Below the pieces are notes generated by a model. That model was not told the origin of the DNA, searched no databases, and worked only from the letters and a program-made list of their open reading frames with translations. A stretch of 64,000 bases of DNA from Parcubacteria group bacterium GW2011_GWA2_42_14 (GTDB lineage: Bacteria; Patescibacteriota; Minisyncoccia; Sungbacterales; GWA2-42-14): positions 85,681-149,680 of the forward strand of contig LCCV01000004.1 in the NCBI GenBank assembly GCA_000998135.1, written 5' to 3'. Within the stretch, counting starts at the first letter, position 1; every line of letters begins with the position of its first letter. The translations under genes and the position numbers were made by a program. This document shows, piece after piece, positions 1,740 through 34,058 of this stretch.

Positions 1740-1789
1740 GGAAACGGGGTTTCCAAGTTACCGAGTTACCACTTGGAAACCCCGTTTCC
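1740..1789. promoter_or_regulatory. perfect 19-bp inverted repeat with 12-nt spacer (candidate operator) in divergent promoter region
   Basis: GGAAACGGGGTTTCCAAGT-taccgagttacc-ACTTGGAAACCCCGTTTCC read directly from the sequence. Lies between the divergent genes 1205-1651(-) and the YcaO gene(+). Overlaps the TTG-initiated N-terminal extension of the YcaO ORF. Confidence 0.6.
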
Positions 1790-1808
1790 ATATGATAACA
1801 TATTTATT

Positions 1809-3296
1809 ATGAAAAACAAGGATATTGAATTTTTGCGCACCGAAAGATTGCAGAATTATTGGGAAAATTACGCGCGCTCTTTTGAACCGCCTTTTTCCCG
1901 GTGGGGTTTTTTAATCGAGTTTTTGGTGAGAATTTTTCGGAACACGGCCATTGCTTTGGAGGGATTATGCGGCCGGAATATTTATGTCAAAAAAGCCGAT
2001 TCTGATTTTGACCGCATCCCCCCGCGGTTTCATTCTTTGGTTAATCTTCTTGGTCAGGAGGGCATATTGAAACAGGTTTTGTTCCCCAAGCCAATATCTG
2101 ACTGGCCGCGCATTCCGGCTTTGAACTTAAAATTCGGCAATGGCGCAAGCGCTTCCGGATACGCGTTGGATTGGGATATGGCCGCAACCAAAGCCGTGGC
2201 TGAACTTTTGGAATGGAGCGCGTTTGGCGGGCATGAGAAAAAAAATTTTATTTTCGGAACATGGAACGATTTAAAATCAAAAGGGGCGGTTGACCCGAAG
2301 CGTTTTATTGCTTTTTCCGAAAAACAGCTCGTCGAACCGGAATATGCCGGGCATCGTATAAATGATGGTTCTAAATTTAGCTGGACTAGATGTTTTTCTC
2401 TTTTTGACGGAAAAGAATATTGGGCGCCGGCGCAATTGGTTTTTTTTGGCAGTGAGATTTTTTCGGGAGAGCCGAAGATTCGTCAAACAACCACCAACGG
2501 CGGAGCGGCCGGAACTTCAATAACCATAGCGTTGGTTCACGGATTATTAGAGGCGATTGAGCGCGATGCTTTGATGATACATTGGCTGAACAAGATTACT
2601 CCGCCTCGTGTTGACCTGGAAAGTTTGGCAGAGTTTAACAATGAAAATATAAATAAAATTCTCGGCGAATATAAAAAATATGATATTGATTTTACGCTTT
2701 TGGACATAACTACTGATTTGGAAGTGCCTGTTTTTCTGACTGTTATCCGCGACCAGATACCAGGCAGGCCGGCTGTTTTTCTCGGGGCCGGAGCAGACCT
2801 TGACGCTGAATCGGCGATTATCCATTCTTTGTTGGAAGGTCTTCGCGCCGGATATTGGAGGGATGTTTCGGAAGAGCAAATTGCGGAAGTCAATAAAAAA
2901 GCGCCGTTAATTGAAAATCTTGAAGAAAGAAGGGCTTATTGGTGCGATAAGTCGCGAATGCCAGAAGCTGATTTTCTTTTAAACGGCCCGATGAAAAAAA
3001 TAAAGAGAAACGAATTTTGCGGCGCGGACAATCAAAAAAAACTGGAGCGGCTTAAGCAGATTCTAAGGGCGCGGGGAATGGAGGCCTACGGCGTTGATTG
3101 CACCACTAAAGCGGCCGAAGGCGCCGGCCTTAAAATTATAATGACATTGGTTCCGGAGCTTTATTATCTTTACCTTAACGAGCGTTTTAAGTATCTGGGA
3201 AGCAAACGATTATATGAAGCGCCGGTAAAAATGGGTGTTTTTAAACAGCCCAAAAAAGAAGAGGAGATGAATTCAATTCCTCATCCCATGCTTTAA
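1809..3296 (+). CDS. YcaO-domain protein (ATP-dependent cyclodehydratase family)
   Basis: Contains both YcaO signature blocks: FGNGASASGYALDWDMAATKAVAELLEWSA and TTNGGAAGTSITIALVHGLLEAIERDA. The start is probably the ATG at 1809 (MKNKDIEF...). The ORF-track start at 1773 is a TTG inside the palindrome. Confidence 0.8.
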   Translation: MKNKDIEFLRTERLQNYWENYARSFEPPFSRWGFLIEFLVRIFRNTAIALEGLCGRNIYVKKADSDFDRIPPRFHSLVNLLGQEGILKQVLFPKPISDWPRIPALNLKFGNGASASGYALDWDMAATKAVAELLEWSAFGGHEKKNFIFGTWNDLKSKGAVDPKRFIAFSEKQLVEPEYAGHRINDGSKFSWTRCFSLFDGKEYWAPAQLVFFGSEIFSGEPKIRQTTTNGGAAGTSITIALVHGLLEAIERDALMIHWLNKITPPRVDLESLAEFNNENINKILGEYKKYDIDFTLLDITTDLEVPVFLTVIRDQIPGRPAVFLGAGADLDAESAIIHSLLEGLRAGYWRDVSEEQIAEVNKKAPLIENLEERRAYWCDKSRMPEADFLLNGPMKKIKRNEFCGADNQKKLERLKQILRARGMEAYGVDCTTKAAEGAGLKIIMTLVPELYYLYLNERFKYLGSKRLYEAPVKMGVFKQPKKEEEMNSIPHPML

Positions 3297-3309
3297 TTGA
3301 TTTATTATT

Positions 3310-4815
3310 ATGATCCGCCATCTTAACTTAAGCGAAAAAACCGAAGAACGACTACAACAGGAAATCAAGTGGCTGCTTGATGAAAAATATGACGGGCATC
3401 GTACTTCGGAAGCAGAACAGGATATCGAACGGCTCAAGAAGGGTGAGCCGGTGGATTACGTTATCGGGCGTATGGATTTTTGCGGCTGCACTATTGATTT
3501 GTCTTTGCGTCCGTTGATTCCCCGGACCTCCACCGAATATTGGGCAGAGAAGACCATTGAATCAATAAAAAAAAGGGGATTAACAAGTCCCCGTTGCCTT
3601 GATATGTTTGCCGGCTCCGGCTGTGTCGGCATAGCGATTTTGAAACATATCCCCGGAGCGACGGTTGATTTTGTGGACATCGATCCGGACGCATTGAAGC
3701 AGATCGAGATCAATCTGAAGCTGAACGATATATCGCCGAATCGTGCGCGGATCATTCATTCCGATGTTTTTCAAAATGTGACCGGCATGTACGATATTAT
3801 TGCGTCTAATCCGCCATATTTTCCTCTTGGAGTTACGGGATTAATCGCAAAATTCAGTTTGGCATACGAATCGCATCATTTTTATTTTGCCGGCGAAGAC
3901 GGTCTTTCCTGCATCCGGCCGTTTTTACAGTCGGCTAGAAAGCACGTGAAGGAGGATGGAGAAATATGGCTTGATTATGCTTCGGGGCAGAAGTCCGACG
4001 TTGAGCGATTGCTTAGAGAATATGGCTATGCAAATTTTATTTTTTCTGATGAGGGGATGAAACAGAGGCAGGTCGTCATAATGTCTGACGCCGCATTTCA
4101 AGCAGCTGATCCATTTTTTGATTTTTTTGATGCTGATCGGCCGGTCGTTGATCCGCTTTTGCCGGAATGGAAAGAGGTGTCTTATAAGGATTATCCCAGG
4201 TCTACTTGTATAACCCTGCCTAAACCGGAATTGCCGCAAGATGTTTTACTGGAAACTGTTTTGGAGAAAAGGAAGAGTGAACGCGATTTTTCTGACAATC
4301 CTTTGCCGGAAAAAACAATAAGCTCGCTGCTTTATTGGAGCGTTGGTCTAATTAACAAAAATAAGAACATGGTCGAGTTTCAGTTAAGGCGGCCGTATCC
4401 TTCGGGCGGGGCAAGATATCAAGTGGAGATTTACGCGGTTCTTTTCAACGGAAGCGGATTGGAAAACGGTGTTTATCATTATAATACCAAAGAGCACGCG
4501 TTGGAATTGATTCAGCGGGCATCTTTTGAAAATATTCGTCAGGCCTTGCATTATGATTTTGCCAAAAAAGCGGCGGCATTGATACTTTTGTCTTTTGTTG
4601 GGGGCAGAACTTTGAAAAAATACGGGAACCTCGGCTATAAGCTTGGCCTGCTTGAGGGCGGGCACATAGGTCAAAATATTTATCTCGTAGGAACGGCTTT
4701 GGGTTTGGGGGTGTTGGCTTTGGGCGGAATGGATTATGAAGTTGTTCAAAAAGAGCTTGATTTGGGAGAGGATGAAACCGTGTTTTATCAACTGGCCATC
4801 GGATGGCCCAAATAG
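3310..4815 (+). CDS. fusion protein: PrmC/HemK-type protein-(glutamine-N5) methyltransferase domain + SagB-type (nitroreductase-fold) dehydrogenase domain
   Basis: Residues 1-255 carry the PrmC/HemK signatures GEPVDYVIGRMDFCG, LIPRTSTEY, DMFAGSGCVGIAIL, DIDPDAL and NPPY. Residues ~300-501 carry the SagB-type hallmark RRPYPSGGARYQVEIY plus a nitroreductase C-terminus (LLEGGHIGQNIYLVGTALGLG...GGMD). Single uninterrupted ORF, 13 nt downstream of the YcaO gene. Confidence 0.75.
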   Translation: MIRHLNLSEKTEERLQQEIKWLLDEKYDGHRTSEAEQDIERLKKGEPVDYVIGRMDFCGCTIDLSLRPLIPRTSTEYWAEKTIESIKKRGLTSPRCLDMFAGSGCVGIAILKHIPGATVDFVDIDPDALKQIEINLKLNDISPNRARIIHSDVFQNVTGMYDIIASNPPYFPLGVTGLIAKFSLAYESHHFYFAGEDGLSCIRPFLQSARKHVKEDGEIWLDYASGQKSDVERLLREYGYANFIFSDEGMKQRQVVIMSDAAFQAADPFFDFFDADRPVVDPLLPEWKEVSYKDYPRSTCITLPKPELPQDVLLETVLEKRKSERDFSDNPLPEKTISSLLYWSVGLINKNKNMVEFQLRRPYPSGGARYQVEIYAVLFNGSGLENGVYHYNTKEHALELIQRASFENIRQALHYDFAKKAAALILLSFVGGRTLKKYGNLGYKLGLLEGGHIGQNIYLVGTALGLGVLALGGMDYEVVQKELDLGEDETVFYQLAIGWPK

Positions 4816-5532: not shown

Positions 5533-6942
5533 ATGAAAAAACTTCTAAATTCCGTTAAATTTATTTCTAAAGCGTTGTTGCTGATAATTCTTCTATTGGT
5601 CGGCTGGGCTTTTATTAATGTTGCCAACTTTATTAAAGGAAAAAAATCCGTGGAAAATAAATCCGGAGCGGGAGATCTTTTTGGGGCTGATAAGGCAAGC
5701 GCGGATATCCCATATATTTACGATTGTAATTGTCCGCATGTCGCGTATTTTGACGGCAAAGAATTTAAAATTGAGAATGATTTTCTTCCGGCAGAATTTA
5801 AAGCAATTGAACCCGGCTTCGCCGGTTATCTTTATGAACAAACCGTCCTGTCTCCTGATATGCTTAAGTTTTCTTCCATACCCCAAAAATATAACGGAGA
5901 ATTGTTCCTGCGCCTTCAGGAAATTGAGCTTGAGGAATCATTTATCCGGTGGATAAAACTTTTAAGAGTTGTTCATTCCGAAAAAGAAGAAATACTCATA
6001 GACGCCGTTAAAAAAGTTCCTTATCTGGTGTCAATAAATGAGGTTAAGGAAAAAATTCTGCTTCCGTCGGAGGTGATGCTGAATGAAAAAAGCTCTTTAG
6101 CCGGAATTTATCTTGCTAAGCAATTTTTATGGAATGATATTCCGGAAAGTAAAAATGACCTTTTTCAAAAAGGCGATTCCATTGATTTCACTTTTAAAAA
6201 TCTTCAAAAAGATAAAGACGTTTTATTGGTGGTGCGTTCCGTGTACCGCGATTGGATGGCCGGCGAGGAAGTAAAAAATAAGTATTCCTTTTCGGATTTT
6301 ACCCGTTTTCCGGTTTTGGCGAAAGTAGCGGCTTTGGCGGGACTTTATTTTCTTTCCGAACATTTGCCAACGGCAGGCGGTCTTGCGCTTTTGCCGTTTG
6401 TGGCCGGGGCAGGAAGCCAGTGCAAATCAATTGCTTTTTCCTATCGCAATAAAGAAGGCGGATTCAATCCTCTTGTAATCCAAAAACCAAGAAGTTTTAG
6501 GCAAAGTACCGAGGTTATTTCCATACCCAAAGAAGCGGTTGGAGAAGATGACTCTATGGTTATTCGCGCGGATTTTACCAAACGGCATCGTTTGAGTTTT
6601 GTCGGGACTCTGCAGGGATTAGAGATGAATGCCGCCGGAGCAGAAGAACTTTCCGTAAAAAATGCCCGGCATTCACGGCTTGGAGATGTAACATTGAAGA
6701 TTTCCGGTAAAGAAAAAAAAGTAACTCATTTGATTCCCGGGGATACGGTGGATGTAAGTTTTGAAGAACCGAGCCGCCTTCTTTTACAAGGACAGAAAGA
6801 AACGTATCTTTTTCAATCAGCCGGGTTTTATTCAGCACTTAGGCCGGAATACAAAAAAGCGGCCGGCAATTGGACGGAAAAACTTTCCTGCGAAGCTAAA
6901 GAGCATTATAAAAAACTTGTTGAAATTAACTCATATAGTTAA
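5533..6942 (+). CDS. hypothetical membrane-anchored protein
   Basis: 469 aa. One N-terminal transmembrane segment (ALLLIILLLVGWAFINV). No recognisable domain. Confidence 0.45.
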   Translation: MKKLLNSVKFISKALLLIILLLVGWAFINVANFIKGKKSVENKSGAGDLFGADKASADIPYIYDCNCPHVAYFDGKEFKIENDFLPAEFKAIEPGFAGYLYEQTVLSPDMLKFSSIPQKYNGELFLRLQEIELEESFIRWIKLLRVVHSEKEEILIDAVKKVPYLVSINEVKEKILLPSEVMLNEKSSLAGIYLAKQFLWNDIPESKNDLFQKGDSIDFTFKNLQKDKDVLLVVRSVYRDWMAGEEVKNKYSFSDFTRFPVLAKVAALAGLYFLSEHLPTAGGLALLPFVAGAGSQCKSIAFSYRNKEGGFNPLVIQKPRSFRQSTEVISIPKEAVGEDDSMVIRADFTKRHRLSFVGTLQGLEMNAAGAEELSVKNARHSRLGDVTLKISGKEKKVTHLIPGDTVDVSFEEPSRLLLQGQKETYLFQSAGFYSALRPEYKKAAGNWTEKLSCEAKEHYKKLVEINSYS

Positions 6943-6954
6943 GAGGGCGTTAAA

Positions 6955-7068
6955 TAACTGCCAAAAAGTTACTTCCTGAGCTTGTCGAAGGATAATGGTT
7001 CGATTAACTCACCATAAACTTTTGGGCTTTAAATAAGGTAACCCCTCGACTCCGCTCGGGGAATAAAA
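6955..7068. repeat. palindromic element, family D copy 2
   Basis: ccaaaaagttacttcctgagcttgtcgaaggataatggttcgattaactcaccataaacttttgggctttaaataaggtaacccctcgactccgctcggggaataaaataa. It is the near-exact reverse complement of 10168-10285. Confidence 0.7.
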
Positions 7069-7084
7069 TAATTATTCAAAGGTC

Positions 7085-8188
7085 TTGTTAATGATAAGAA
7101 TGAGCGAAAACAAAAATAAAAAAGTTAAAATTGTTTTAGCGGTTATTGCCGGTCTGGCGGTTATGGTTTTAGTTGCGTTTTTTTGGGGGAAGCAATGGTT
7201 TGCTTCCTCATATTTTAATCAAGGGCAGACTGCTTTTTTAAAAGGGGATTATGATGCGGCGGGGCAGTTGTTTGAAAAGTCCTTGAAGTTTAACGCAAAA
7301 AATCCGGAGCCGCATTTTTATTTGGGAAAAATCGCTTTAGGTAAGACTGTTTCCAGCGGCCCCCTTTTGTATCCCAATGCCGATTACGAGTCCGCGGTCG
7401 AGCATTTTGAACAATCGTTTTCTTTTGGTCTTGTTCAAAAAAACAAAGACGCTTATCTTGTATCACTTAATGATGCCGGTTTTTCTTATTACATGCTGAA
7501 ACAGTATGAAAAATCCATACCGCTTTTTCTAAAATACATTGAATTGAATCCAACCGGAGCTTTTACGGCGCGATATTTCGTGGCAACGGATTATCTCAAT
7601 CGTTCCAACAAACCAGAGGAAGCTTTGGATATTTTACTTCCGGCAGTTGATGCCGTTTCCGTCAATTCTCCGATTAACAGGCGGAATCTGTTTCGCGTAT
7701 ATTCGCTTCTTGGCCGGTTATATAGTTATTTCGCGGATGCCGTTAATACGGAAAAGTATGCGCGTCTGTCCATTGAAAGCGGCGTAGCCGGCAATAGAGA
7801 GCCGGAAATTCAAGTTGCTCACGTGCTCCTGTCTATTGTTTACGGCAGTAGGGGTGATTTTTCTTCGGCCATGGCGGAAATTAAAACGGCCAATGAATTG
7901 GCGGGTTCTGGCAGTGCGTACAATTGTTCTTTGGTCACAGCGTATTTTGCCGGTAAGAATTATTTTGACGCGGTTGAGGCGGCTAAAGCCGTTAAGCCGT
8001 CCAATTCTTATGGCTATTCCACCTGTTTGCAGATTTTAGGCGAATCTTATCTGGCAGAGGGCAATAAAATTGAGGCAAAAAAATATATGGAAGATTATCT
8101 GACCATGACCGATAAATTTAAAGATAAGAACATTTTTGTTTTCCGCAATCGCGAAAAGTTTGTTGATGAACTGGAGAATTTAAAATAA
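7085..8188 (+). CDS. TPR-repeat protein, membrane anchored
   Basis: N-terminal transmembrane segment followed by tetratricopeptide-like repeats (GDYDAAGQLFEKSLKFN...). Confidence 0.55.
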   Translation: MLMIRMSENKNKKVKIVLAVIAGLAVMVLVAFFWGKQWFASSYFNQGQTAFLKGDYDAAGQLFEKSLKFNAKNPEPHFYLGKIALGKTVSSGPLLYPNADYESAVEHFEQSFSFGLVQKNKDAYLVSLNDAGFSYYMLKQYEKSIPLFLKYIELNPTGAFTARYFVATDYLNRSNKPEEALDILLPAVDAVSVNSPINRRNLFRVYSLLGRLYSYFADAVNTEKYARLSIESGVAGNREPEIQVAHVLLSIVYGSRGDFSSAMAEIKTANELAGSGSAYNCSLVTAYFAGKNYFDAVEAAKAVKPSNSYGYSTCLQILGESYLAEGNKIEAKKYMEDYLTMTDKFKDKNIFVFRNREKFVDELENLK

Positions 8189-8190
8189 AG

Positions 8191-8985
8191 ATGTTAAAAA
8201 AAGATTTTTTAAAGTTTAGGGTTTTTATAATTTTTCTTGCCGCTTTTGCGGTTTTTGTTTTATTTTTTTATTTTCAGCCGGATATTGGGAATTTTTTATG
8301 GAAAGAGGCGGGATTTCCGCGGCTCGCTGTTTTTGTTTATCCGGATGCGAAGTTTGCCGTGAATATTGGCAATTATTATTTTAACGTCGGCGGTAAAGGG
8401 GATTATGATTTGGCGAGAGCCGAAAAATTTTTCCGCTACGCTTTGTTTTTGAATTCGCGTGTTCCTGATGCCTGGCACGAGCTCGCGCGTATTGATTTTT
8501 TGCGGGGAGATTTTGCCGGAGCTCTTGAAAAAATCAATAAGCAAATTGCGCTTCACGGTGATTTGTTTATGGCTTCGTTTTATATCCGCGGCCTGATTAA
8601 CGGATATGCCGGAAATTTTGACGAAGCCGAGCGTGATTTTAAAAAATTTCTGGAATGGGATAAAACTAACTGGGCTGTTCACAACGACCTTGCCTGGATT
8701 TATTTTCAAAAGGGGGATTATAAAAAAACCGAAGAAATTGCCAGAGCCGGCCTTGAATTTAATCGGGGAAATATCTGGTTGCTTATTTCTTTAGGAGTTG
8801 CCTTATTGAATCAGGAAAAAAAGGAAGAGGCGCGGAAAATTTTAGAAGAGGCCGGTATGGCCGCGACCCTGTTATCTGAAACGGATTGGCAGAAGGCCTA
8901 TCCGGGAAATAATCCTTTGTGGGCCAAAACCGGACTTGAAAAAATGAAAGAAACGATTGAATTTAATTTGGGTCTTGTTCGTTAG
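8191..8985 (+). CDS. TPR-repeat protein, membrane anchored
   Basis: N-terminal transmembrane segment followed by TPR-like repeats. The start is 3 nt after the stop of the upstream TPR gene. Confidence 0.55.
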   Translation: MLKKDFLKFRVFIIFLAAFAVFVLFFYFQPDIGNFLWKEAGFPRLAVFVYPDAKFAVNIGNYYFNVGGKGDYDLARAEKFFRYALFLNSRVPDAWHELARIDFLRGDFAGALEKINKQIALHGDLFMASFYIRGLINGYAGNFDEAERDFKKFLEWDKTNWAVHNDLAWIYFQKGDYKKTEEIARAGLEFNRGNIWLLISLGVALLNQEKKEEARKILEEAGMAATLLSETDWQKAYPGNNPLWAKTGLEKMKETIEFNLGLVR

Positions 8986-9023: not shown

Positions 9024-9103
9024 GTCATTCTGAGCGAAGCGAAGAATCTCGTGTTTAAGCCAGTTTCGAAAGATAGAGATTCTTCACAAAGTTCAGAATG
9101 ACA
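9024..9103. repeat. hairpin repeat family A copy (GTCATTCTGAGCGAAGCGAAGAATCTC ... TTCAGAATGAC)
   Basis: Inverted termini gtcattctgagc / ttcagaatgac. Related copies at 19505, 25627, 27205, 31037, 38445 and 41879. Confidence 0.7.
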
Positions 9104-10104: not shown

Positions 10105-10167
10105 TAAATAGTCGCTAAACAATCGCTAATTTTGTCGCGAATTTTCTCTAAAAGACCGTTGAATAAT

Positions 10168-10285
10168 TATTTTACTCCCCGAGCAGAGTCGAGGGGTTAC
10201 TTTATTTAAAGCCCAAAAGTTTATGGTGAGTTAATCGAACCATTATCTTTCGATAAACTCAGGGAATAACTTTTGAGCTGTTATG
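10168..10285. repeat. palindromic element, family D copy 3 (inverted relative to copy 2)
   Basis: Reverse complement of the 6955-7068 element. Together with it, brackets the 7085-10104 gene block. Confidence 0.7.
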
Positions 10286-10358
10286 CAACGGTATCTCTAA
10301 TGCGGGTAGACAATACCCGTATTTTATTGTAAGCTTAAAAAAGTATAAAAATGAAAAT

Positions 10359-10467: not shown

Positions 10468-11677
10468 ATGGAAGAACTGAAGGAAAAACTCGCAGAATTG
10501 GAAAATAAAGCCCGCGAATTGGCGGACCGTCTTTGACTTGCCTAAAAAAGAGCTGGAAATTTCGGAAATTGAAAAAGCTATGGGTATTGCCGGATTTTGG
10601 GAAGATAAGAAGCGGGCGCGGGAAATGAGTCAGGAATTAGCCGTTCTTAAGAAAGAAAAAGAGCGTTGGGACGTATTTTTTGATGAAATAAAGACGCTCA
10701 AGGAATTGTTGGAAATTTTAGTTCACCCCGTTAGAAGTCCGGCAATGGCTTCTTTGAGCGGAAAGGAAGGCGAAGCCGACTTAGGCCTTAGTCCATCTTC
10801 CAACAAAAGCGCTTTTCAGACTTCTAATGGGGCAAAAGACGAGCAGATTATTAAGGAAATTGAGGAGAGAATTAAAATCATTGAAAAAAATTTAAAAATA
10901 GTTGAAATTGAAACATTATTTGCCGGAAAATACGATAAAGGCAACGCGGTTTTGTCGGTCTATGCCGGAGCCGGAGGAAAGGATTCGGAAGATTGGGCCG
11001 CACTTCTTTTGAGAATGTACCGCAGATTTGCCGAAAAAAAAGGATGGAAGTCGCGAACCCTTCACGAGCATTGGGGAGAATCCAGCGGGCCTGCCGGCTG
11101 GGGAATAAAAAACGCGACGATTTTAATAGAAGCGCCATTTTCCTACGGATATTTGAAAAATGAATCGGGTGTGCACCGGTTGGTGCGTATTTCGCCTTTT
11201 TCCAGTCAGAGTTTGCGCCATACTTCTTTTGCCTTGGTTGATGTCATGCCAGAATTTGTGGCTCCGGAAGAAGTTGAAATAAATCCTGATGATTTAAAAA
11301 TAGATTTTTTCCGTTCATCCGGTCCGGGAGGGCAGAACGTGAACAAGCGCGAAACCGCGGTGCGCATAACTCATCTTCCGACCGGTTTGCAGGCGGCCTC
11401 ACAATCCGAAAGAACACAGGAGAGAAATCGCGAAATTGCCATGGAACTTTTGCGTTCGCGCCTTTATGCTTTTAAGTTAAAACAACAGGAACAGGAAAGA
11501 CAGGGTGTACGCAAAGAAAAAGTCGCCATAGAATGGGGCTCGCAAATCCGTTCTTACGTAATGCATCCGTATCAAATGGTAAAGGACCATAGGACGGAGG
11601 TTGAAACATCAAATATTGAAAAAGTTTTGGATGGAGGGCTGGATGAGTTTATTGATGCAGAACTTCATAAATCATGA
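10468..11677 (+). CDS. prfB: peptide chain release factor 2 with programmed +1 ribosomal frameshift (CTT TGA C at 10531-10537)
   Basis: ORF1 (MEELKEKLAELENKARELADRL) ends at an in-frame TGA in the canonical CUU UGA C context. The +1 frame continues as DLPKKELEISEIEKAMG... and contains SPF-like and GGQ (SGPGGQNVNK) motifs. Carries an extra ~36 aa from the family B element. Confidence 0.85.
10726..10832. repeat. family B palindromic element inserted in-frame within prfB
   Basis: Terminal inverted repeats ccccgttagaagtcc / gacttctaatgggg. Encodes HPVRSPAMASLSGKEGEADLGLSPSSNKSAFQTSNG within the RF2 ORF. Confidence 0.7.
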
Positions 11678-12420: not shown

Positions 12421-12512
12421 ATCGCCAATCCGTCGCTAATTTTTTCGCGAATGGTTCGACGAGCTCACCACAGGCATTCGCGAATGAAATTCGAGATTGA
12501 TTAGTGATTATT
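12421..12512. repeat. palindromic element family C copy 1 (…ttcgcgaatgGTTCGACGAGCTCACCACAGGcattcgcgaa…gattgattag)
   Basis: Near-identical copy at 27996-28082. Partial copies at 10105-10140 and 39700-39730. Confidence 0.7.
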
Positions 12513-17603: not shown

Positions 17604-17742
17604 AAAAATGGTTTAAACAACCCCTTGATTTATTTATCGTATGGGAGTAGAATAATGGCATAGATTAGTTATTAATTTTCGTCATTTGGTAGGCCCCTTT
17701 AGGGGCTTTTCTCTTGGTTTAAGGGTATTTTATTTTAGTCAT

Positions 17743-18732
17743 ATGTTCATAGATGATCTTACAATTAAGGTGGGGGCGGGAAACGGCGGAAAGGGCGCTG
17801 TCGCGTTTAATAAAAACCTTAACCAATATGGCCCGACAGGCGGTTCCGGCGGCATGGGCGGAAGCGTTTTTGTCGAAGGTTCGTCTAACATGGGGATTCT
17901 TAGTAAATATCGTTATAAAAAAGATTTTTTTGCGGACGACGGGAAAGACGGCAGAGGACAATTTTGCGACGGGTCTGATGCGAAAGATCTTGTATTGCTT
18001 ATCCCAGTCGGAACGGTTGTTCATAACATTACAATGGGGACCAATCAGGAGGTCATATTGATCGGCCAGCGTATTTTGGTGGCGTCGGGCGGCTCCGGCG
18101 GCAAGGGTAATTTTCACTTTCGGTCTTCCATAAATACGCGGCCAAAACAATTTAAGTATGGAGAGACCGGCGAAAAGTTTATTATCCAGCTTGAATTAAA
18201 ATTAATGGCCGATGTGGGAATAATCGGTCTGCCTAATGTCGGTAAATCAAGCTTGCTTAACGAGTTGACCTCGGCAAAAAGCAGGGTGGGCAATTTTCCT
18301 TTCACGACGCTTGAACCGAATTTGGGAGTTTATTTTGAAATGATCCTTGCCGATATTCCCGGTTTAATAGAAGGTGCTTCCGGCGGAAAAGGGCTTGGGA
18401 TAAAGTTTTTACGCCATATTGAACGGACCGGAGTTCTTTTTCACATTATATCCGCGGAATCGCCAAACTCGTACGTTGATTACAAAGTTATACGGCGCGA
18501 GCTCGGAATATATAACCCTGCTCTGCTTAAGAAAAAAGAGCATGTGTTTTTAAGCAAGAGCGATATGGTTTCTTCTGCGGACCTTAAAAAGAAAATTCTT
18601 TTGTTGAAAAATAAAGGCATTCGCGCGCTGGCCTTTTCAATACACGATTTTAATTCCATAGAAAAAATAAAAAAAATCCTTAATACGCTGATAAAAAAGA
18701 AGTATCAAAAAAAAGCGGGTAAACCCCGTTAG
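17743..18732 (+). CDS. obg: GTPase Obg/CgtA
   Basis: Obg fold N-terminus FIDDLTIKVGAGNGGKGAVAF...GGSGGMGGSV. G1 motif GLPNVGKSSLLN. G3 motif DIPGLIEGAS. The stop TAG lies inside the family B element. Confidence 0.85.
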   Translation: MFIDDLTIKVGAGNGGKGAVAFNKNLNQYGPTGGSGGMGGSVFVEGSSNMGILSKYRYKKDFFADDGKDGRGQFCDGSDAKDLVLLIPVGTVVHNITMGTNQEVILIGQRILVASGGSGGKGNFHFRSSINTRPKQFKYGETGEKFIIQLELKLMADVGIIGLPNVGKSSLLNELTSAKSRVGNFPFTTLEPNLGVYFEMILADIPGLIEGASGGKGLGIKFLRHIERTGVLFHIISAESPNSYVDYKVIRRELGIYNPALLKKKEHVFLSKSDMVSSADLKKKILLLKNKGIRALAFSIHDFNSIEKIKKILNTLIKKKYQKKAGKPR

Positions 18733-18825
18733 AACGCTTGCTTCGCGGCCGGCTGATGGGTGCCCTTAACTCTTTCAGCTATTTCTTTATTTATTACCGG
18801 CAGGAGTCGGTAACGTTCTAACGGG
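18724..18825. repeat. family B palindromic element (intergenic copy; provides obg stop codon)
   Basis: ccccgttagaacg ... cgttctaacgggg. The TAG of ccccgtTAG terminates obg (…KPR*). Confidence 0.65.
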
Positions 18826-18843
18826 GTAAAAAGAAAAATAACC

Positions 18844-22382: not shown

Positions 22383-22404
22383 ACGGCAAAAGCATAAGTG
22401 CTTG

Positions 22405-22516
22405 CCCCGTTAGAAGTTTAGCAATACGCCAATTACCGCACCACAATGTGAAGCGAAGCGGCTTTCGCCTTACATCTTTTGGAATAAAATACATCTTATT
22501 TAGATTCCTAACGGGG
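22405..22516. repeat. family B palindromic element (intergenic copy)
   Basis: ccccgttagaag ... cctaacgggg. Confidence 0.6.
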
Positions 22517-22637
22517 CTTGTATTGTTATTCATACTATGATAGTATTATATGGATCAATTCATGGGGGCTGTAAGAGAAGCGTAGTCGGGTTTTATTCTG
22601 CAGTATTCCCTTGTTTTGTGGCTTATTGGCTTAAAAT

Positions 22638-22945: not shown

Positions 22946-23075
22946 CGCTCCGCGATGGCGGGGCGTTTTTATTTTTGGATTAGTTTTGGAAACGGAGCGT
23001 TTTTAATTGGCTGGCGCAAATGCTATAATTTATAATGTTTGGGCCGGTTGGTTCGGAGTCGAATTTTGCTAAATT

Positions 23076-23097
23076 AGGGAAGTCGGACTTCGCTAAA
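23076..23097. repeat. REP palindrome GGGAAGTCGGACTTCGCTAA (copy flanking RAYT 3' side)
   Basis: Palindromic GAAGTCGGACTTC core. Further copies at 23626-23649 (inside the RAYT gene) and a doublet at 23865-23900. Confidence 0.65.
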
Positions 23098-23108
23098 TTC
23101 ACTGTTGC

Positions 23109-23837
23109 TTATTCGATGACGATATCACGGATCGTTTCAGTATTGAGTCCTTGTAACCAATCAGTCATATCTTTTTTGTAATCGCTTGTTTTCCGGAGCC
23201 CATAGATTTTAGTAAGAAAATTTCTCTGGGTGATTGATGGAAAATTTTTAATCCCGATATAGTCTTGATAACTTGACCAGCGATATGATTCTAAAAATTG
23301 CAGCGCCTTTCTGACATTTGATATTTTTTTCTCCCGCCATTCTGGAAAAGACGTATCTAGGGGATTGAGATGGATATAGTGGGGGAGATATAACAGGTGT
23401 GCCTGGTTAAAGATATGAACTGCCTTAAATTTTCCCTGAAAGAGGGGGCCTACGCGTTGATACTTTGTGTTAAAATAGTTAGTGTATCCGGTTCCTATTT
23501 TTCGCATGAATTCGGTAATGCCGTTATCAGCTAATTGTCGGATTATGAAGTGATAGTGATTGGGCATGAGGCAAAAACAAAAGATTTCAACCAGCATTTT
23601 TCTCGGCATCTGTAATTTAGCGAAGTCGGACTTCGCTAAATTACCGGCAAATGGCCGTTTTCCATAGGAATCAAAATAATAACCGAGGTTTATGGCCGGA
23701 TTTTCATCATTAAATTCAAACATATCGTGAATAAAGCGGAAGTAATCAGATTGATTAGAAAATATATGGCGTTTTTCAACACCGCGGTTAAAGATGTGGT
23801 AGATTTCTCCTGTTGCAAATTGTGGTCTTTTTGCCAT
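23109..23837 (-). CDS. REP-associated tyrosine transposase (RAYT; IS200/Y1 transposase family)
   Basis: EIYHIFNRGVEKRHIF, HuH motif CLMPNHYHFIIRQ, YFNTKYQRVGPLFQGKFKAVHI, YIHLNPL. Contains an internal REP-encoded segment NLAKSDFAKLQ. Confidence 0.8.
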   Translation of the reverse strand: MAKRPQFATGEIYHIFNRGVEKRHIFSNQSDYFRFIHDMFEFNDENPAINLGYYFDSYGKRPFAGNLAKSDFAKLQMPRKMLVEIFCFCLMPNHYHFIIRQLADNGITEFMRKIGTGYTNYFNTKYQRVGPLFQGKFKAVHIFNQAHLLYLPHYIHLNPLDTSFPEWREKKISNVRKALQFLESYRWSSYQDYIGIKNFPSITQRNFLTKIYGLRKTSDYKKDMTDWLQGLNTETIRDIVIE

Positions 23838-23864: not shown

Positions 23865-23900
23865 GACTTCAATAGTTTAGCGAAGTCGGACTTCGCTAAA
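23865..23900. repeat. REP doublet upstream of the RAYT start
   Basis: agtgaagtcggacttcaatag followed by ttagcgaagtcggacttcgctaaa. Confidence 0.65.
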
Positions 23901-31595: not shown

Positions 31596-34058
31596 ATGGA
31601 ACATAATCATAAAATTGAAAAAGAGGTTGAAAAAGAATCTTACTGTGTTTGCGGTAATGGGTGTTTATGTTGGAGCGCTGAAAAGTTAAGCGTAAATTGC
31701 GGTTGCGGTATGGAGGCCAAGCAGTTTGAATATAAAATGGATAAAAAGTGCTGTCATACCGAACACGGGCACGGCGGAGAGCCAAAGAATGATGAAAAAA
31801 TTGTTTACCCCGTTAGAAGTCCGGAAGTGCCTTTGTCTTTAGGGCTGCCTAAGGGCGAAGCCGATTTACATCATGGTTTTTCATCAGACATGAAGCCCTC
31901 TTTGACTTCTAACGTGGTTTACACCTGTCCGATGCATCCCGAAGTCGTAAAAAATGAACCCGGGCTTTGTCCCGGCTGCGGCATGGCGCTCGTGCCAAAA
32001 AAAAGCGAAGAATACGGTGGAAAAGATTTTTCAAAAATAAGTCATAAAGACCACGAAGCGGCAATGACCAATCCGGAGATGGCTAAAAAGATGGAAGTGG
32101 ATATGCGGCGCCGGTTTTGGATTTCTTTTCTTCTTTCTATTCCTGTCGTTTTGTATTCTCCTTTGGGGCTCAACTATTTCAAACTTAATCTTCCGACTCC
32201 GATTCCGGCAAGCTGGCTTCTTTTTCTTTTAACTACGCCGATTGTTTTTTGGACCGGCTCAATTTTCATTACCGGCACTTATTATTCGTTTAAGGCCAAA
32301 AAACTCAATATGGCGGTTTTGATTGCTACGGGAGTTTTGGCGGCATATCTTTTCAGTGTTTTATTTACGTTCATCCGGCCGGAGTCGGAAACATTTTATG
32401 AAGCCGCGGCTTTGCTTGTAACTTTCGTTCTTTTCGGCCATTGGATGGAGATGAAATCACGCCGAGGCACCTCGGATGCCCTACGCGCTCTTTTTGACCT
32501 TGTACCGCCGAAAGCAAATGTTATTCGCGGGGGAAAAGAAATGAACATACCAAGCGCTGAAATAGTTCATGGCGATATTGTTGTGTTGCGTCCCGGAGAT
32601 AAGGTGCCGGTTGACGGAGAAATTATTGAGGGCGAGTCCTCCGTTGATGAATCGCTGGTAACCGGAGAATCTATTCCGGTTTCCAAAACTATTGGCGCGA
32701 AAGTAATTGGCGGTTCGGTAAATCAAACCGGCATGGTCAAATTTAAAGCCGTTCAAGTCGGTTCAGAAACCGTTTTGGCGCAAATCATCAAACTTGTTGA
32801 AACCGCCCAGAACTCCAAAGCTCCGGGACAGCGTATTGCCGATAAAGCGGCCGGGTGGCTCGTTATTGTTGCCATTGGTTCGGGTCTTGCCGCGTTTTTG
32901 GGATGGTATTTCGGCGCGGGCGCCGGCTTTCTAACAGCGCTTACTTTTGCAGTTTCCACTATTGTGATTGCCTGCCCCGATGCTTTAGGCCTGGCAACGC
33001 CAACGGCAGTTGCCGTGGGAACCGGAATCGGCGCCAAACATAATATTCTTATTAAGGACGCGGCCACGCTTGAAAACACTTCCCGTCTTAATGCTATCGT
33101 GCTTGATAAAACCGGAACGCTTACGGAAGGAAAACCGAAAGTTACCGATGTCGCCGCTTTCAACGGTTTTACGGAACGGGAAATACTTAATTATGAAGCT
33201 AGTGTTGAAGTCGGTTCAAACCACCCCCTTGCTAAAGCGATAATGGAAGAAGCAGAAAGGCGGGGCGCTATGCCGCTTGAATCGATTGGTAAATTTGAAT
33301 CTATTCCCGGGCACGGTCTTAAAGCGGTAATTAACGAAAAAACGGTTTTTGCCGGAAAAGAAAAATTTCTGACTGATAATAGAATAGAGATCGGGAATGG
33401 TCGGACAGTACTTGATAAGCTGGCCGGTGAAGGAAAAACTTTAAGCTTGCTCGCGGTTGGCGGGATTTTTGCCGGGATAGTAGCGGCGGCCGATACAATA
33501 AAACCAAACGCGAAAAAAGCGGTTGAAGAACTTAAAAAACTCGGCATTGAAACAGCAATGATTACCGGCGACCATAAAAAAGTTGCCGAGGCCGTCGGTA
33601 AAGAATTGGGGATTGAGCGAATTTTTGCCGAAGTTTTGCCGGAAGACAAAGCCAAGTATGTTAAAAAATTGCAGGAGGAAGGAAAATTTGTGGCCATGGT
33701 GGGCGACGGCATCAATGACGCGCCGGCCCTTGCCCAATCGGATATAGGAATTGCTATCGGAGCCGGCACCGATGTTGCCAAAGAAACCGGAAATATTATT
33801 TTGGCCAAATCCGATCCCTTGGATATTGTACGCGCCATTCTTTTGAGCAAGGCCACCGTCCGGAAAATGAAGCAGAATCTTTTTTGGGCCGCGATTTATA
33901 ATATTTCAGCCATTCCGGTGGCGGCCGGCGTTTTTTACAGTTCGCTTGGCTGGTCTTTGCGGCCGGAAATTTCAGCTCTTCTTATGTCGGCCTCGTCTAT
34001 TATTGTCGCCACCAACGCGGTATTATTAAAAAGAGTTGAATCTTTCCTTAAGCAGTGA
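31596..34058 (+). CDS. heavy-metal (copper-type) P1B-type ATPase with Cys-rich N-terminus and atypical CPD transmembrane motif
   Basis: DKTGTLT phosphorylation site. GDGINDAPAL hinge. TGES actuator (LVTGESIPV). N-terminal CxC/CC clusters and YTCPMHPEV…CPGCGM metal-binding motif. TM6 motif reads IACPDALGLATP (checked against the DNA: tgc ccc gat), not the usual CPC. Confidence 0.8.
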   Translation: MEHNHKIEKEVEKESYCVCGNGCLCWSAEKLSVNCGCGMEAKQFEYKMDKKCCHTEHGHGGEPKNDEKIVYPVRSPEVPLSLGLPKGEADLHHGFSSDMKPSLTSNVVYTCPMHPEVVKNEPGLCPGCGMALVPKKSEEYGGKDFSKISHKDHEAAMTNPEMAKKMEVDMRRRFWISFLLSIPVVLYSPLGLNYFKLNLPTPIPASWLLFLLTTPIVFWTGSIFITGTYYSFKAKKLNMAVLIATGVLAAYLFSVLFTFIRPESETFYEAAALLVTFVLFGHWMEMKSRRGTSDALRALFDLVPPKANVIRGGKEMNIPSAEIVHGDIVVLRPGDKVPVDGEIIEGESSVDESLVTGESIPVSKTIGAKVIGGSVNQTGMVKFKAVQVGSETVLAQIIKLVETAQNSKAPGQRIADKAAGWLVIVAIGSGLAAFLGWYFGAGAGFLTALTFAVSTIVIACPDALGLATPTAVAVGTGIGAKHNILIKDAATLENTSRLNAIVLDKTGTLTEGKPKVTDVAAFNGFTEREILNYEASVEVGSNHPLAKAIMEEAERRGAMPLESIGKFESIPGHGLKAVINEKTVFAGKEKFLTDNRIEIGNGRTVLDKLAGEGKTLSLLAVGGIFAGIVAAADTIKPNAKKAVEELKKLGIETAMITGDHKKVAEAVGKELGIERIFAEVLPEDKAKYVKKLQEEGKFVAMVGDGINDAPALAQSDIGIAIGAGTDVAKETGNIILAKSDPLDIVRAILLSKATVRKMKQNLFWAAIYNISAIPVAAGVFYSSLGWSLRPEISALLMSASSIIVATNAVLLKRVESFLKQ
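31808..31917. repeat. family B palindromic element inserted in-frame within the Cu-ATPase gene
   Basis: ccccgttagaagtcc … gacttctaacgtgg. Encodes YPVRSPEVPLSLGLPKGEADLHHGFSSDMKPSLTSNV between the Cys-rich N-terminus and the CPMHPE motif. Confidence 0.7.

Follow-up and report, generated by a model that had tools for sequence, protein, structure and literature searches.

In Parcubacteria group bacterium GW2011_GWA2_42_14, a tiny groundwater bacterium of the candidate phyla radiation (CPR), the gene for peptide release factor 2 (RF2), prfB, contains a 107-nt palindromic element that is read in frame and adds 37 residues to the protein. The gene lies in a stretch of 64,000 nt, which was analysed as a whole and is called the window here, and the same element occurs at further places in the window and in many other genomes. 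On the evidence of its ends, its flanks and its reading frame, the element is very probably a non-autonomous DNA transposon, namely a miniature transposable element with inverted repeats (MITE), which has entered the genes for RF2 and for a Cu-exporting P-type ATPase in frame and would be tolerated in both proteins as a loop. The features concerned are as follows.

10468 to 11677, forward strand: prfB (RF2), host gene of the putative MITE, assigned by its match to RF2 structures, its frameshift site and its motifs.
10726 to 10832, forward strand: putative MITE copy of 107 nt, in frame in prfB, assigned by end motif, fold and profile (E = 1.4e-21).
10722 to 10725, forward strand: left flank of the prfB element, TTCA; the duplication is not intact.
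10833 to 10836, forward strand: right flank of the prfB element, CAAA, mismatched to TTCA.
31808 to 31917, forward strand: putative MITE of 110 nt, in the gene for the Cu-exporting P-type ATPase, where it lies in frame in the N-terminal linker (profile E = 3e-18).
22405 to 22516, forward strand: putative intergenic MITE of 112 nt, of the same subfamily as the RF2 copy (profile E = 1e-11).
18724 to 18826, forward strand: putative MITE of 103 nt, a relative at the level of the termini, at the 3′ end of obg, with perfect 13-bp repeats CCCCGTTAGAACG / CGTTCTAACGGGG.

The host gene has the usual layout of prfB: ORF0 (10468-10533) is closed by the classic +1 frameshift site CTT TGA C at 10531-10537, and the open reading frame (ORF) of the main frame extends from 10538 to 11677 with its stop codon at 11675-11677. 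Its product matches solved RF2 chains with E = 1e-85 and keeps the SPF and GGQ motifs. Both RF2 and the Cu-ATPase match the records of Parcubacteria group bacterium GW2011_GWA2_42_14 at 100%. In addition, the same 379-residue RF2 is encoded, without any difference, on 13 contigs of independent assemblies, and thus the insert-bearing allele is real and stable.

The element in prfB begins with CCCCGTTAGAAGTC and ends with GACTTCTAATGGGG, terminal inverted repeats of 13-14 bp that pair in a 14-bp stem, and has a hairpin region GGCGAAGCC / GAC..G.C in its middle. As RNA it folds with -41.3 kcal/mol (z = -3.1 versus shuffles), and in the host frame it is translated into (H)PVRSPAMASLSGKEGEADLGLSPSSNKSAFQTSNG(A). 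Between the conserved LLEI and KEI this protein has 49 residues. Among its 120 nearest RF2 sequences, 66-89% identical, 102 have 12 residues there, and the 37-residue segment is missing from all 119 homologues. The surplus amounts to exactly 37 codons (111 nt), which equals 107 + 4. AlphaFold2, supplied with a homologue alignment, gives a confident RF2 fold with a mean predicted local distance difference test score (pLDDT) of 84 and about 90 outside the insert; residues 63-95 form a coil (pLDDT 44-71) between the helices 24-62 and 96-127 of the N-terminal domain, distant in sequence from the SPF and GGQ regions. On the evidence of the ortholog alignment and the predicted coil, a loop of domain 1 has received a lineage-specific insertion. 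The original prediction, which was made from the letters of the sequence alone, had described a palindrome inserted in frame at 10726-10832 and had proposed just this origin and this location for it, and it named as a refutation the same segment in orthologs of unrelated lineages; the comparison with the 120 RF2 sequences, together with the fold of the element as RNA, bears it out. The pre-insertion prfB site could not be reconstructed from the nearest insert-free alleles (loci L122 and L123), in which the loop differs by two codons. The predicted tryptic peptides of the insert-bearing RF2 include the junction peptide EGEADLGLSPSSNK.

The element is not alone in the window. A 15-mer end motif, searched with up to 3 mismatches, has 7 matches versus 0.94 expected, a number reached in none of 100 shuffles, and marks the four elements at 10726-10832, 18724-18826, 22405-22516 and 31808-31917, all of which fold with a 13-14-bp terminal stem (z = -3.1 to -5.3). 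A profile built from metagenomic copies only recognizes the elements at 10726 (E = 1e-21), 31808 (E = 3e-18) and 22405 (E = 1e-11); that at 18724 agrees with them in its termini and target duplication only and has a family-level E = 0.012. The expectation that all four copies are alike on formal alignment was thus confirmed for three of them, while the fourth is related by its termini and duplication only. In the Cu-ATPase gene (31596-34058) the element lies in a variable linker immediately before the YTCPMHPEV metal-binding domain (PF19335), is flanked by a perfect 4-bp duplication TTTA (31804-31807 and 31918-31921) and adds about 38 residues in the same phase as in RF2 (YPVRSP...TSNV), as had been predicted; it is missing from 11 homologues with the same Cys-rich N-terminus. 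The copy at 22405 has a perfect duplication CTTG (22401-22404 and 22517-22520), and that at 18724 a perfect duplication TAAA (18720-18723 and 18827-18830). Both had been taken for intergenic, which is right for the copy at 22405-22516. That at 18724-18826, however, truncates obg: the Obg GTPase gene (17686-18732) has its stop codon, TAG (18730-18732), in the left repeat of the element. If the element and one TAAA copy are taken away, the obg frame becomes 13 codons longer, so that the insertion replaced the C-terminal tail of Obg.

The family was characterized by two scans: one genome per species was searched with the pattern CCCCGTTAGAA-N(75-105)-CTAAYGNGG, which gave at least 119 loci, and metagenomes were searched for the GTCC subfamily, which gave at least 122 copies. 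The genome set used below comprises 124 elements, 120 from the loci listed and the four window copies. The ends are CCCCGTTAGAA on the left and TTCTAACGGGG on the right, in terminal inverted repeats of 13 bp (CCCCGTTAGAA-R-N). Complementarity between the arms is 73-100% at positions 1-13 and falls to the chance level (22-37%) from position 14; positions 12-13 are variable yet covary between the arms. Perfect 4-bp flanking repeats were found in 65 of the 124 genome elements and 86 of the 122 metagenome copies among the matches listed, 151 in all, where chance would give 0.4%, and flanking repeats of 5 bp or more in none of the listed copies of either set. Insertion sites are YNNR, mostly TNNA, with a target consensus R-TNNA-Y (T at -4 in 85%, A at -1 in 86%). 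The matching flanks include non-palindromic ones (TATG, TGGG, TGAG, CATA and CTGA), and therefore they represent a true 4-bp duplication. The orientation of the elements relative to the flanking genes is unbiased (26:27 and 25:24), and the mutual information between flank and internal positions is at most 0.14 bit, at the threshold given by shuffling.

Copies measure 94-125 nt, the scans having admitted about 95-125 nt only, and there are also mini forms of 26-57 nt made of the two ends and a loop, about one third of which have perfect duplications by our reading. No copy, full-size or mini, has an ORF of its own. The interiors are mostly unrelated across species. Within the family, a 95-nt subfamily occurs in Deltaproteobacteria metagenome-assembled genomes, and a subfamily of about 110 nt is abundant in aquifer metagenomes (consensus CCCCGTTAGAAGTCCGGCAATG...AAGGCGAAGCCGACTTACGTCTT...GACTTCTAACGGGG). 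RNAalifold gives a terminal stem and, at the centre, a small hairpin whose middle pair covaries (AU 17, GC 8, CG 2). Nested and tandem copies were also found, and the copy density is four in the 64-kb window and up to four or five in a single locus of 8-13 kb. Locally it is very high in some Patescibacteria-like contigs: in the pheS-pheT operon of locus L210 (2228-10689), elements lie in successive spacers at 2228-2349, 3769-3893, 6299-6433 and 10587-10689. At 8601-8828 of locus L201 (the same locus as L220), two identical 112-nt elements stand in tandem in the order TCAA-element-TCAA-element-TCAA, and the shared duplication suggests re-insertion at a duplicated target or unequal recombination.

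How can an insertion of about 110 nt leave an essential gene functional? A copy of the ~110-nt subfamily landed in the turn between two long helices of RF2 domain 1, and a second one in an inter-domain linker of the Cu-ATPase. Since the length of the element is 2 mod 3, the 4-bp duplication completes whole codons (111 and 114 nt) and the frame is kept. Two of the three phases through the termini are also free of stop codons, as in x CCC GTT AGA (P-V-R) ... TCT AAC GGG (S-N-G). With the right length and phase, a stop-free interior and a tolerant loop, the protein would keep working and such copies would survive.

This scheme can be compared with the copies that lie well inside long ORFs, which number 5 of the 124 genome elements and 8 of the 122 metagenome copies (6 distinct loci), or about 5%, among the matches listed. 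The 13 genic occurrences considered here are two from the window, three from the genome scan and eight from the metagenome scan; one of the 13, a copy in DctQ (L016), may be upstream of the true start codon. In all 13 the length is 2 mod 3 and the host frame runs through without a stop codon, being read as P-V/I-R...S-N-G in 11 and as P-L-E...L-T-G in 2, and they are present in both orientations. Of the non-genic copies, 45% have a length of 2 mod 3, and of those 28-32% are stop-free in a given phase. Thus the genic copies have been filtered for an open frame, so that translation is to be expected and removal from the RNA is not; the inserts would be translated as disordered surface loops. Besides RF2 and the Cu-ATPase, the hosts include QueA, an RluD-type pseudouridine synthase, glutamate-5-kinase, a Memo-like protein, a polysaccharide deacetylase, two PMT-type glycosyltransferases and the leader peptide of a pseudopilin, and the family peptide common to host proteins is PVRSP..GEADL..TSNG. 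A profile of the two window peptides had five hits in an exhaustive search of representatives, and the peptide PVRSP..GEADL..SLTSNG lies inside four further proteins, one of just 71 residues. The same profile was unproductive against a set of 5.8 billion proteins, where the word prefilter let through only 22 candidates.

Two of the genic loci have a peculiar structure. At 1350-1447 of locus L099, a 29-nt mini element is nested in a 98-nt element in the glutamate-5-kinase gene, both of them in frame (29 + 4 = 33 nt), with the translation NPIRSPHPVRNRISNGT...ITSNG. At 551-660 of locus L137 (the same locus as L200), the element lies in the pseudopilin leader, MKGFT[PLEV...LLTGFT]IVELLV; its TTCA duplication recreates G-F-T, which suggests that the prepilin-peptidase site is regenerated after the insert and that the mature pilin would be unchanged.

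What moves the element? Mobilization in trans by a DDE-type transposase making 4-nt staggered cuts would account for it, the movement being double-strand cut-and-paste or copy-paste: flanking 4-mers that vary between copies and match within a copy, the lack of an orientation bias and the lack of dependence between flank and interior all fit such an enzyme. The matching variable 4-mers and the missing flank-interior dependence argue at the same time against a guide-directed, duplication-free insertion of the IS200/IS605 type. In a related scheme, the element would be a hairpin similar to a repetitive extragenic palindrome (REP) or REPIN, which an IS200-like tyrosine transposase (HUH, of the RAYT or TIRYT type) moves as single-stranded DNA, and its flanks would be recognition or cleavage tetranucleotides. 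Repeat families that have terminal inverted repeats and are associated with tyrosine transposases have been described (PMC3733652), and the window itself contains, at 23109-23837 on the minus strand, a gene for an IS200-like tyrosine transposase (Pfam Y1_Tnp), which is flanked by the perfect palindromes TTTAGCGAAGTC / GGACTTCGCTAAA at 23070-23099 and 23873-23900. These palindromes, however, differ in sequence from the element, the flank of the gene being TTTAGCGAAGTCGGACTTCGCTAAA and not the MITE, and the Y1 protein is encoded at only 2 of about 240 element-bearing loci. The central mini-hairpin of the element (GCGAAGC type, with one covarying pair) and the REP-like size of the mini versions of 26-33 nt speak for such a mechanism, whereas it has difficulty in explaining the variable flanks that match within each copy, rare non-palindromic ones included, or the absence of a GTAG or CGTC tag, and a guide model predicts a strong flank-interior dependence where hardly any was seen. 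We consider it improbable.

Alternatively, the element may never reach the protein, being cut from the mRNA like an intron or a processed hairpin, or being bypassed by the ribosome, so that RF2 would be unaltered. The 14-bp terminal stem would join both ends in the RNA, and insertions in rRNA genes of CPR bacteria are known. If so, neither length nor stop codons should matter, yet the genic copies are 13 of 13 in frame and open, against only about 45% with the right length and about 30% stop-free among the non-genic ones; the orientation is unbiased with respect to transcription; genic copies occur in both orientations; and a known structured RNA, ribozyme or intron was rejected as a candidate since no Rfam covariance model matched. 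In the whole window, just two tRNAs reach the Rfam gathering score, and the best match in 10600-10950 has E = 1.6. This account is therefore very unlikely. There is hardly any room left for the view that an ordinary loop expansion of the lineage, or an artefact of assembly, resembles the family by chance, for which only the difference of a few residues in the inter-helix loop among RF2 relatives could be adduced: the RF2 insert is recognized by a profile of independent metagenomic copies, the end motif is in clear excess in the window, perfect 4-bp duplications flank the three remaining copies of the window, and the identical RF2 recurs in separate assemblies.

Some observations weigh against a MITE mobilized in trans and translated in its host proteins. 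A search of the window (40 ORFs) and of related loci totalling about 1.7 Mb found neither an autonomous element nor a DDE transposase with these termini. The prfB copy is without an intact 4-bp duplication (TTCA versus CAAA), a flank pair that recurs at locus L068. Near-identical copies, which would be a sign of recent mobility, were seen at no two different loci. The case for translation is made from frame statistics. Finally, the taxon labels on which the distribution given below is based derive from metagenome-assembled genomes, although two of the genomes are complete and some contigs are of Mb scale.

The search for the enzyme was extended in several ways. The ORFs beside solo ends are ordinary genes, and an all-against-all clustering of 589 ORFs yielded no recurrent transposase. 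End pairs 130-4000 nt apart with matching duplications were considered as full insertion sequences (IS) and rejected, as they enclose housekeeping genes between two MITEs (for example pheS in L210, queA in L168 and L194). The ISEcp1 transposase, obtained via blaCTX-M-15, had no match among all locus ORFs in a phmmer search, a weak test because the 8-kb loci had been chosen for their MITEs. Our best guess from the features of the ends, namely 5′-CC and a duplication of 4-5 bp, would nevertheless be an enzyme resembling those of IS1380 and piggyBac: the element has CCCC and 4 bp, and piggyBac has the target TTAA and CCC termini. A kinship of IS1380 and piggyBac is stated in the literature. The ISEcp1 end CCTAGATTCTACG and the IS1678 end CCTGAATAATTC, the latter with the 5-bp duplication GATAG, both begin with CC, but the similarity to the element stops there.

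According to the record titles of the loci listed, about a dozen phyla share these termini of 11-13 bp. They are found in CPR lineages (Saccharibacteria, Parcubacteria, Moran-, Nomura-, Doudna-, Falkow-, Kazan and others), in Deltaproteobacteria / Desulfobacterota, including the complete ORM2a genome, in Planctomycetota, in Omnitrophota, including the complete genome of Velamenicoccus archaeovorus, in Nitrospirae, Elusimicrobia, Cloacimonadota, Edwardsbacteria, Stahlbacteria and Bdellovibrionales, and in single bins of Gammaproteobacteria and Clostridia. Thus, judging from its termini, the element is not confined to the lineage in which it was noticed. Viral contigs gave 2 matches in 2.9 million, which indicates that it is not a phage element. 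The integron attC site, whose order is R″ (RYYYAAC) ... R′ (GTTRRRY) in cassette arrays beside an integrase, was rejected as its identity: the core order is reversed (GTTAGAA...TTCTAAC), and the copies are dispersed singletons with duplications and without an integrase.

Palindromes inside proteins are best known from Rickettsia. Rickettsia palindromic elements (RPEs) have about 100-150 bp, lie in frame in unrelated, often housekeeping genes, encode a family-specific peptide and are thought to be placed where the protein fold tolerates them (PMC10969869; PMC3733652). The likeness to RPEs that had been proposed at the outset is supported by our comparison as far as behaviour is concerned: the present element is in frame in unrelated functional genes, encodes a family peptide and resides in a reduced genome as a palindrome apparently tolerated in proteins. 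It does not extend to the sequence, and with a host from another clade, Parcubacteria, membership in the RPE sequence families is unlikely. Unlike in RPEs, the 13-bp terminal inverted repeats and the 4-bp target duplications are clear in the present family; it spans many phyla, RPEs being found in one genus, and about 5% of its copies are genic, whereas nearly half of RPEs are in ORFs (PMC10969869).

With bacterial MITEs such as Correia/NEMIS, ERIC, RUP, BOX, Nezha and QMITE1/2 of Coxiella, the element has in common that it is small and non-coding, occurs in multiple copies, mostly between genes, forms hairpins and has terminal inverted repeats and duplications. MITEs are at times fused in frame with ORFs or give stop codons (PMC5896051; PMC10969869); QMITEs of Coxiella add residues or stop codons (PMC5896051), and REPs do likewise (PMC3733652). 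In-frame fusion by intragenic MITEs has been called 'not unusual', with several examples, in a 2024 review (PMC10969869), and thus the phenomenon is already known in other bacteria. MITE clusters are mostly genus-specific (97.4%) in a survey of 183,232 genomes (PMC11602168), in contrast to termini of 11-13 bp that are the same in about a dozen phyla, and the 4-bp duplication at TNNA differs from the common TA. REPs and REPINs (RAYT, TIRYT) are also short hairpin repeats that can lie in ORFs and supply TAG stop codons (PMC3733652), but the present element has a target duplication and CCCC...GGGG termini, lacks the GTAG or CGTC tag, has a palindrome other than the Y1 flank and does not co-occur with Y1. 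What is notable compared with the known in-frame MITEs is the spread across phyla and the CPR as host group. No paper on MITEs in CPR genomes was found, and the end sequence and 'TNNA' were found in no relevant paper, which is consistent with the suggestion that such an element is not documented for this kind of genome, though not proof of it.

If the element is a MITE, even CPR genomes of about 1 Mb would hold active-looking selfish DNA, which could persist in an essential translation factor by frame arithmetic (2 mod 3 + 4 bp). The peptide PVRSP...TSNG and the end motif CCCCGTTAGAA could flag insert-bearing proteins in metagenomes, which should curb the misreading of such loops as lineage-specific functional domains, and RF2, QueA, ProB, RluD-like enzymes and the prepilin leader would provide a natural set of tolerated loops of 33-38 residues. 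That about a dozen phyla of co-occurring anaerobes have identical termini suggests a widely exchanged transposase, and the element could mark horizontal exchange among uncultivated bacteria of groundwater and sediment. One may speculate further that this is an orphan pan-phylum transposon family with an enzyme outside the catalogued IS transposases, in which hairpin units of 26-33 nt are independently mobile and recurrently add loops to essential proteins encoded by ultra-small genomes. Such units do consist of two termini and a loop, with 4-bp duplications of their own and nested insertions, and would be among the smallest transposable DNAs known, but we regard this extended proposal as rather unlikely.

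Other repeats and genes in the window deserve a brief description. The Y1_Tnp gene contains a third copy of its palindrome at 23614-23643, in frame and encoding NLAKSDFAKL; with its own palindrome inside the gene, the unit looks like a REPtron or TIRtron. Further repeat families are distributed as follows.

Window positions 9075, 19500, 25651, 25777, 31088, 38513 and 41932: second repeat family.
Window positions 6989, 12445, 25732, 28017, 45164, 47986 and 49408: third repeat family.

The second family, GTCATTCTGA...CGAAG(G/A)ATCTC, has about 45-50 nt and is intergenic in both orientations. In locus L231 it is in frame in a PMT-type glycosyltransferase (VILSASEGSI...RDRFFALLRMT), which carries the CCCCGTTAGAA element too. 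The third family has the core AATGGTTCGA(C/T)NA(G/A)CTCACCA, is sometimes bounded by TTCGCGAATG...CATTCGCGAA and has a copy in the ftsE-ftsX spacer (12440-12484). Just upstream of a tRNA and prfB, a pair of 139-nt inverted repeats (6948-7086 and 10152-10290, 90% complementary) surrounds a 3-kb segment encoding two TPR proteins and a Cys-rich secreted protein, which may be a composite or invertible segment. The genes at 1773-4815, first one for a YcaO cyclodehydratase and then one for a fused methyltransferase-nitroreductase, resemble a peptide-modification cluster.

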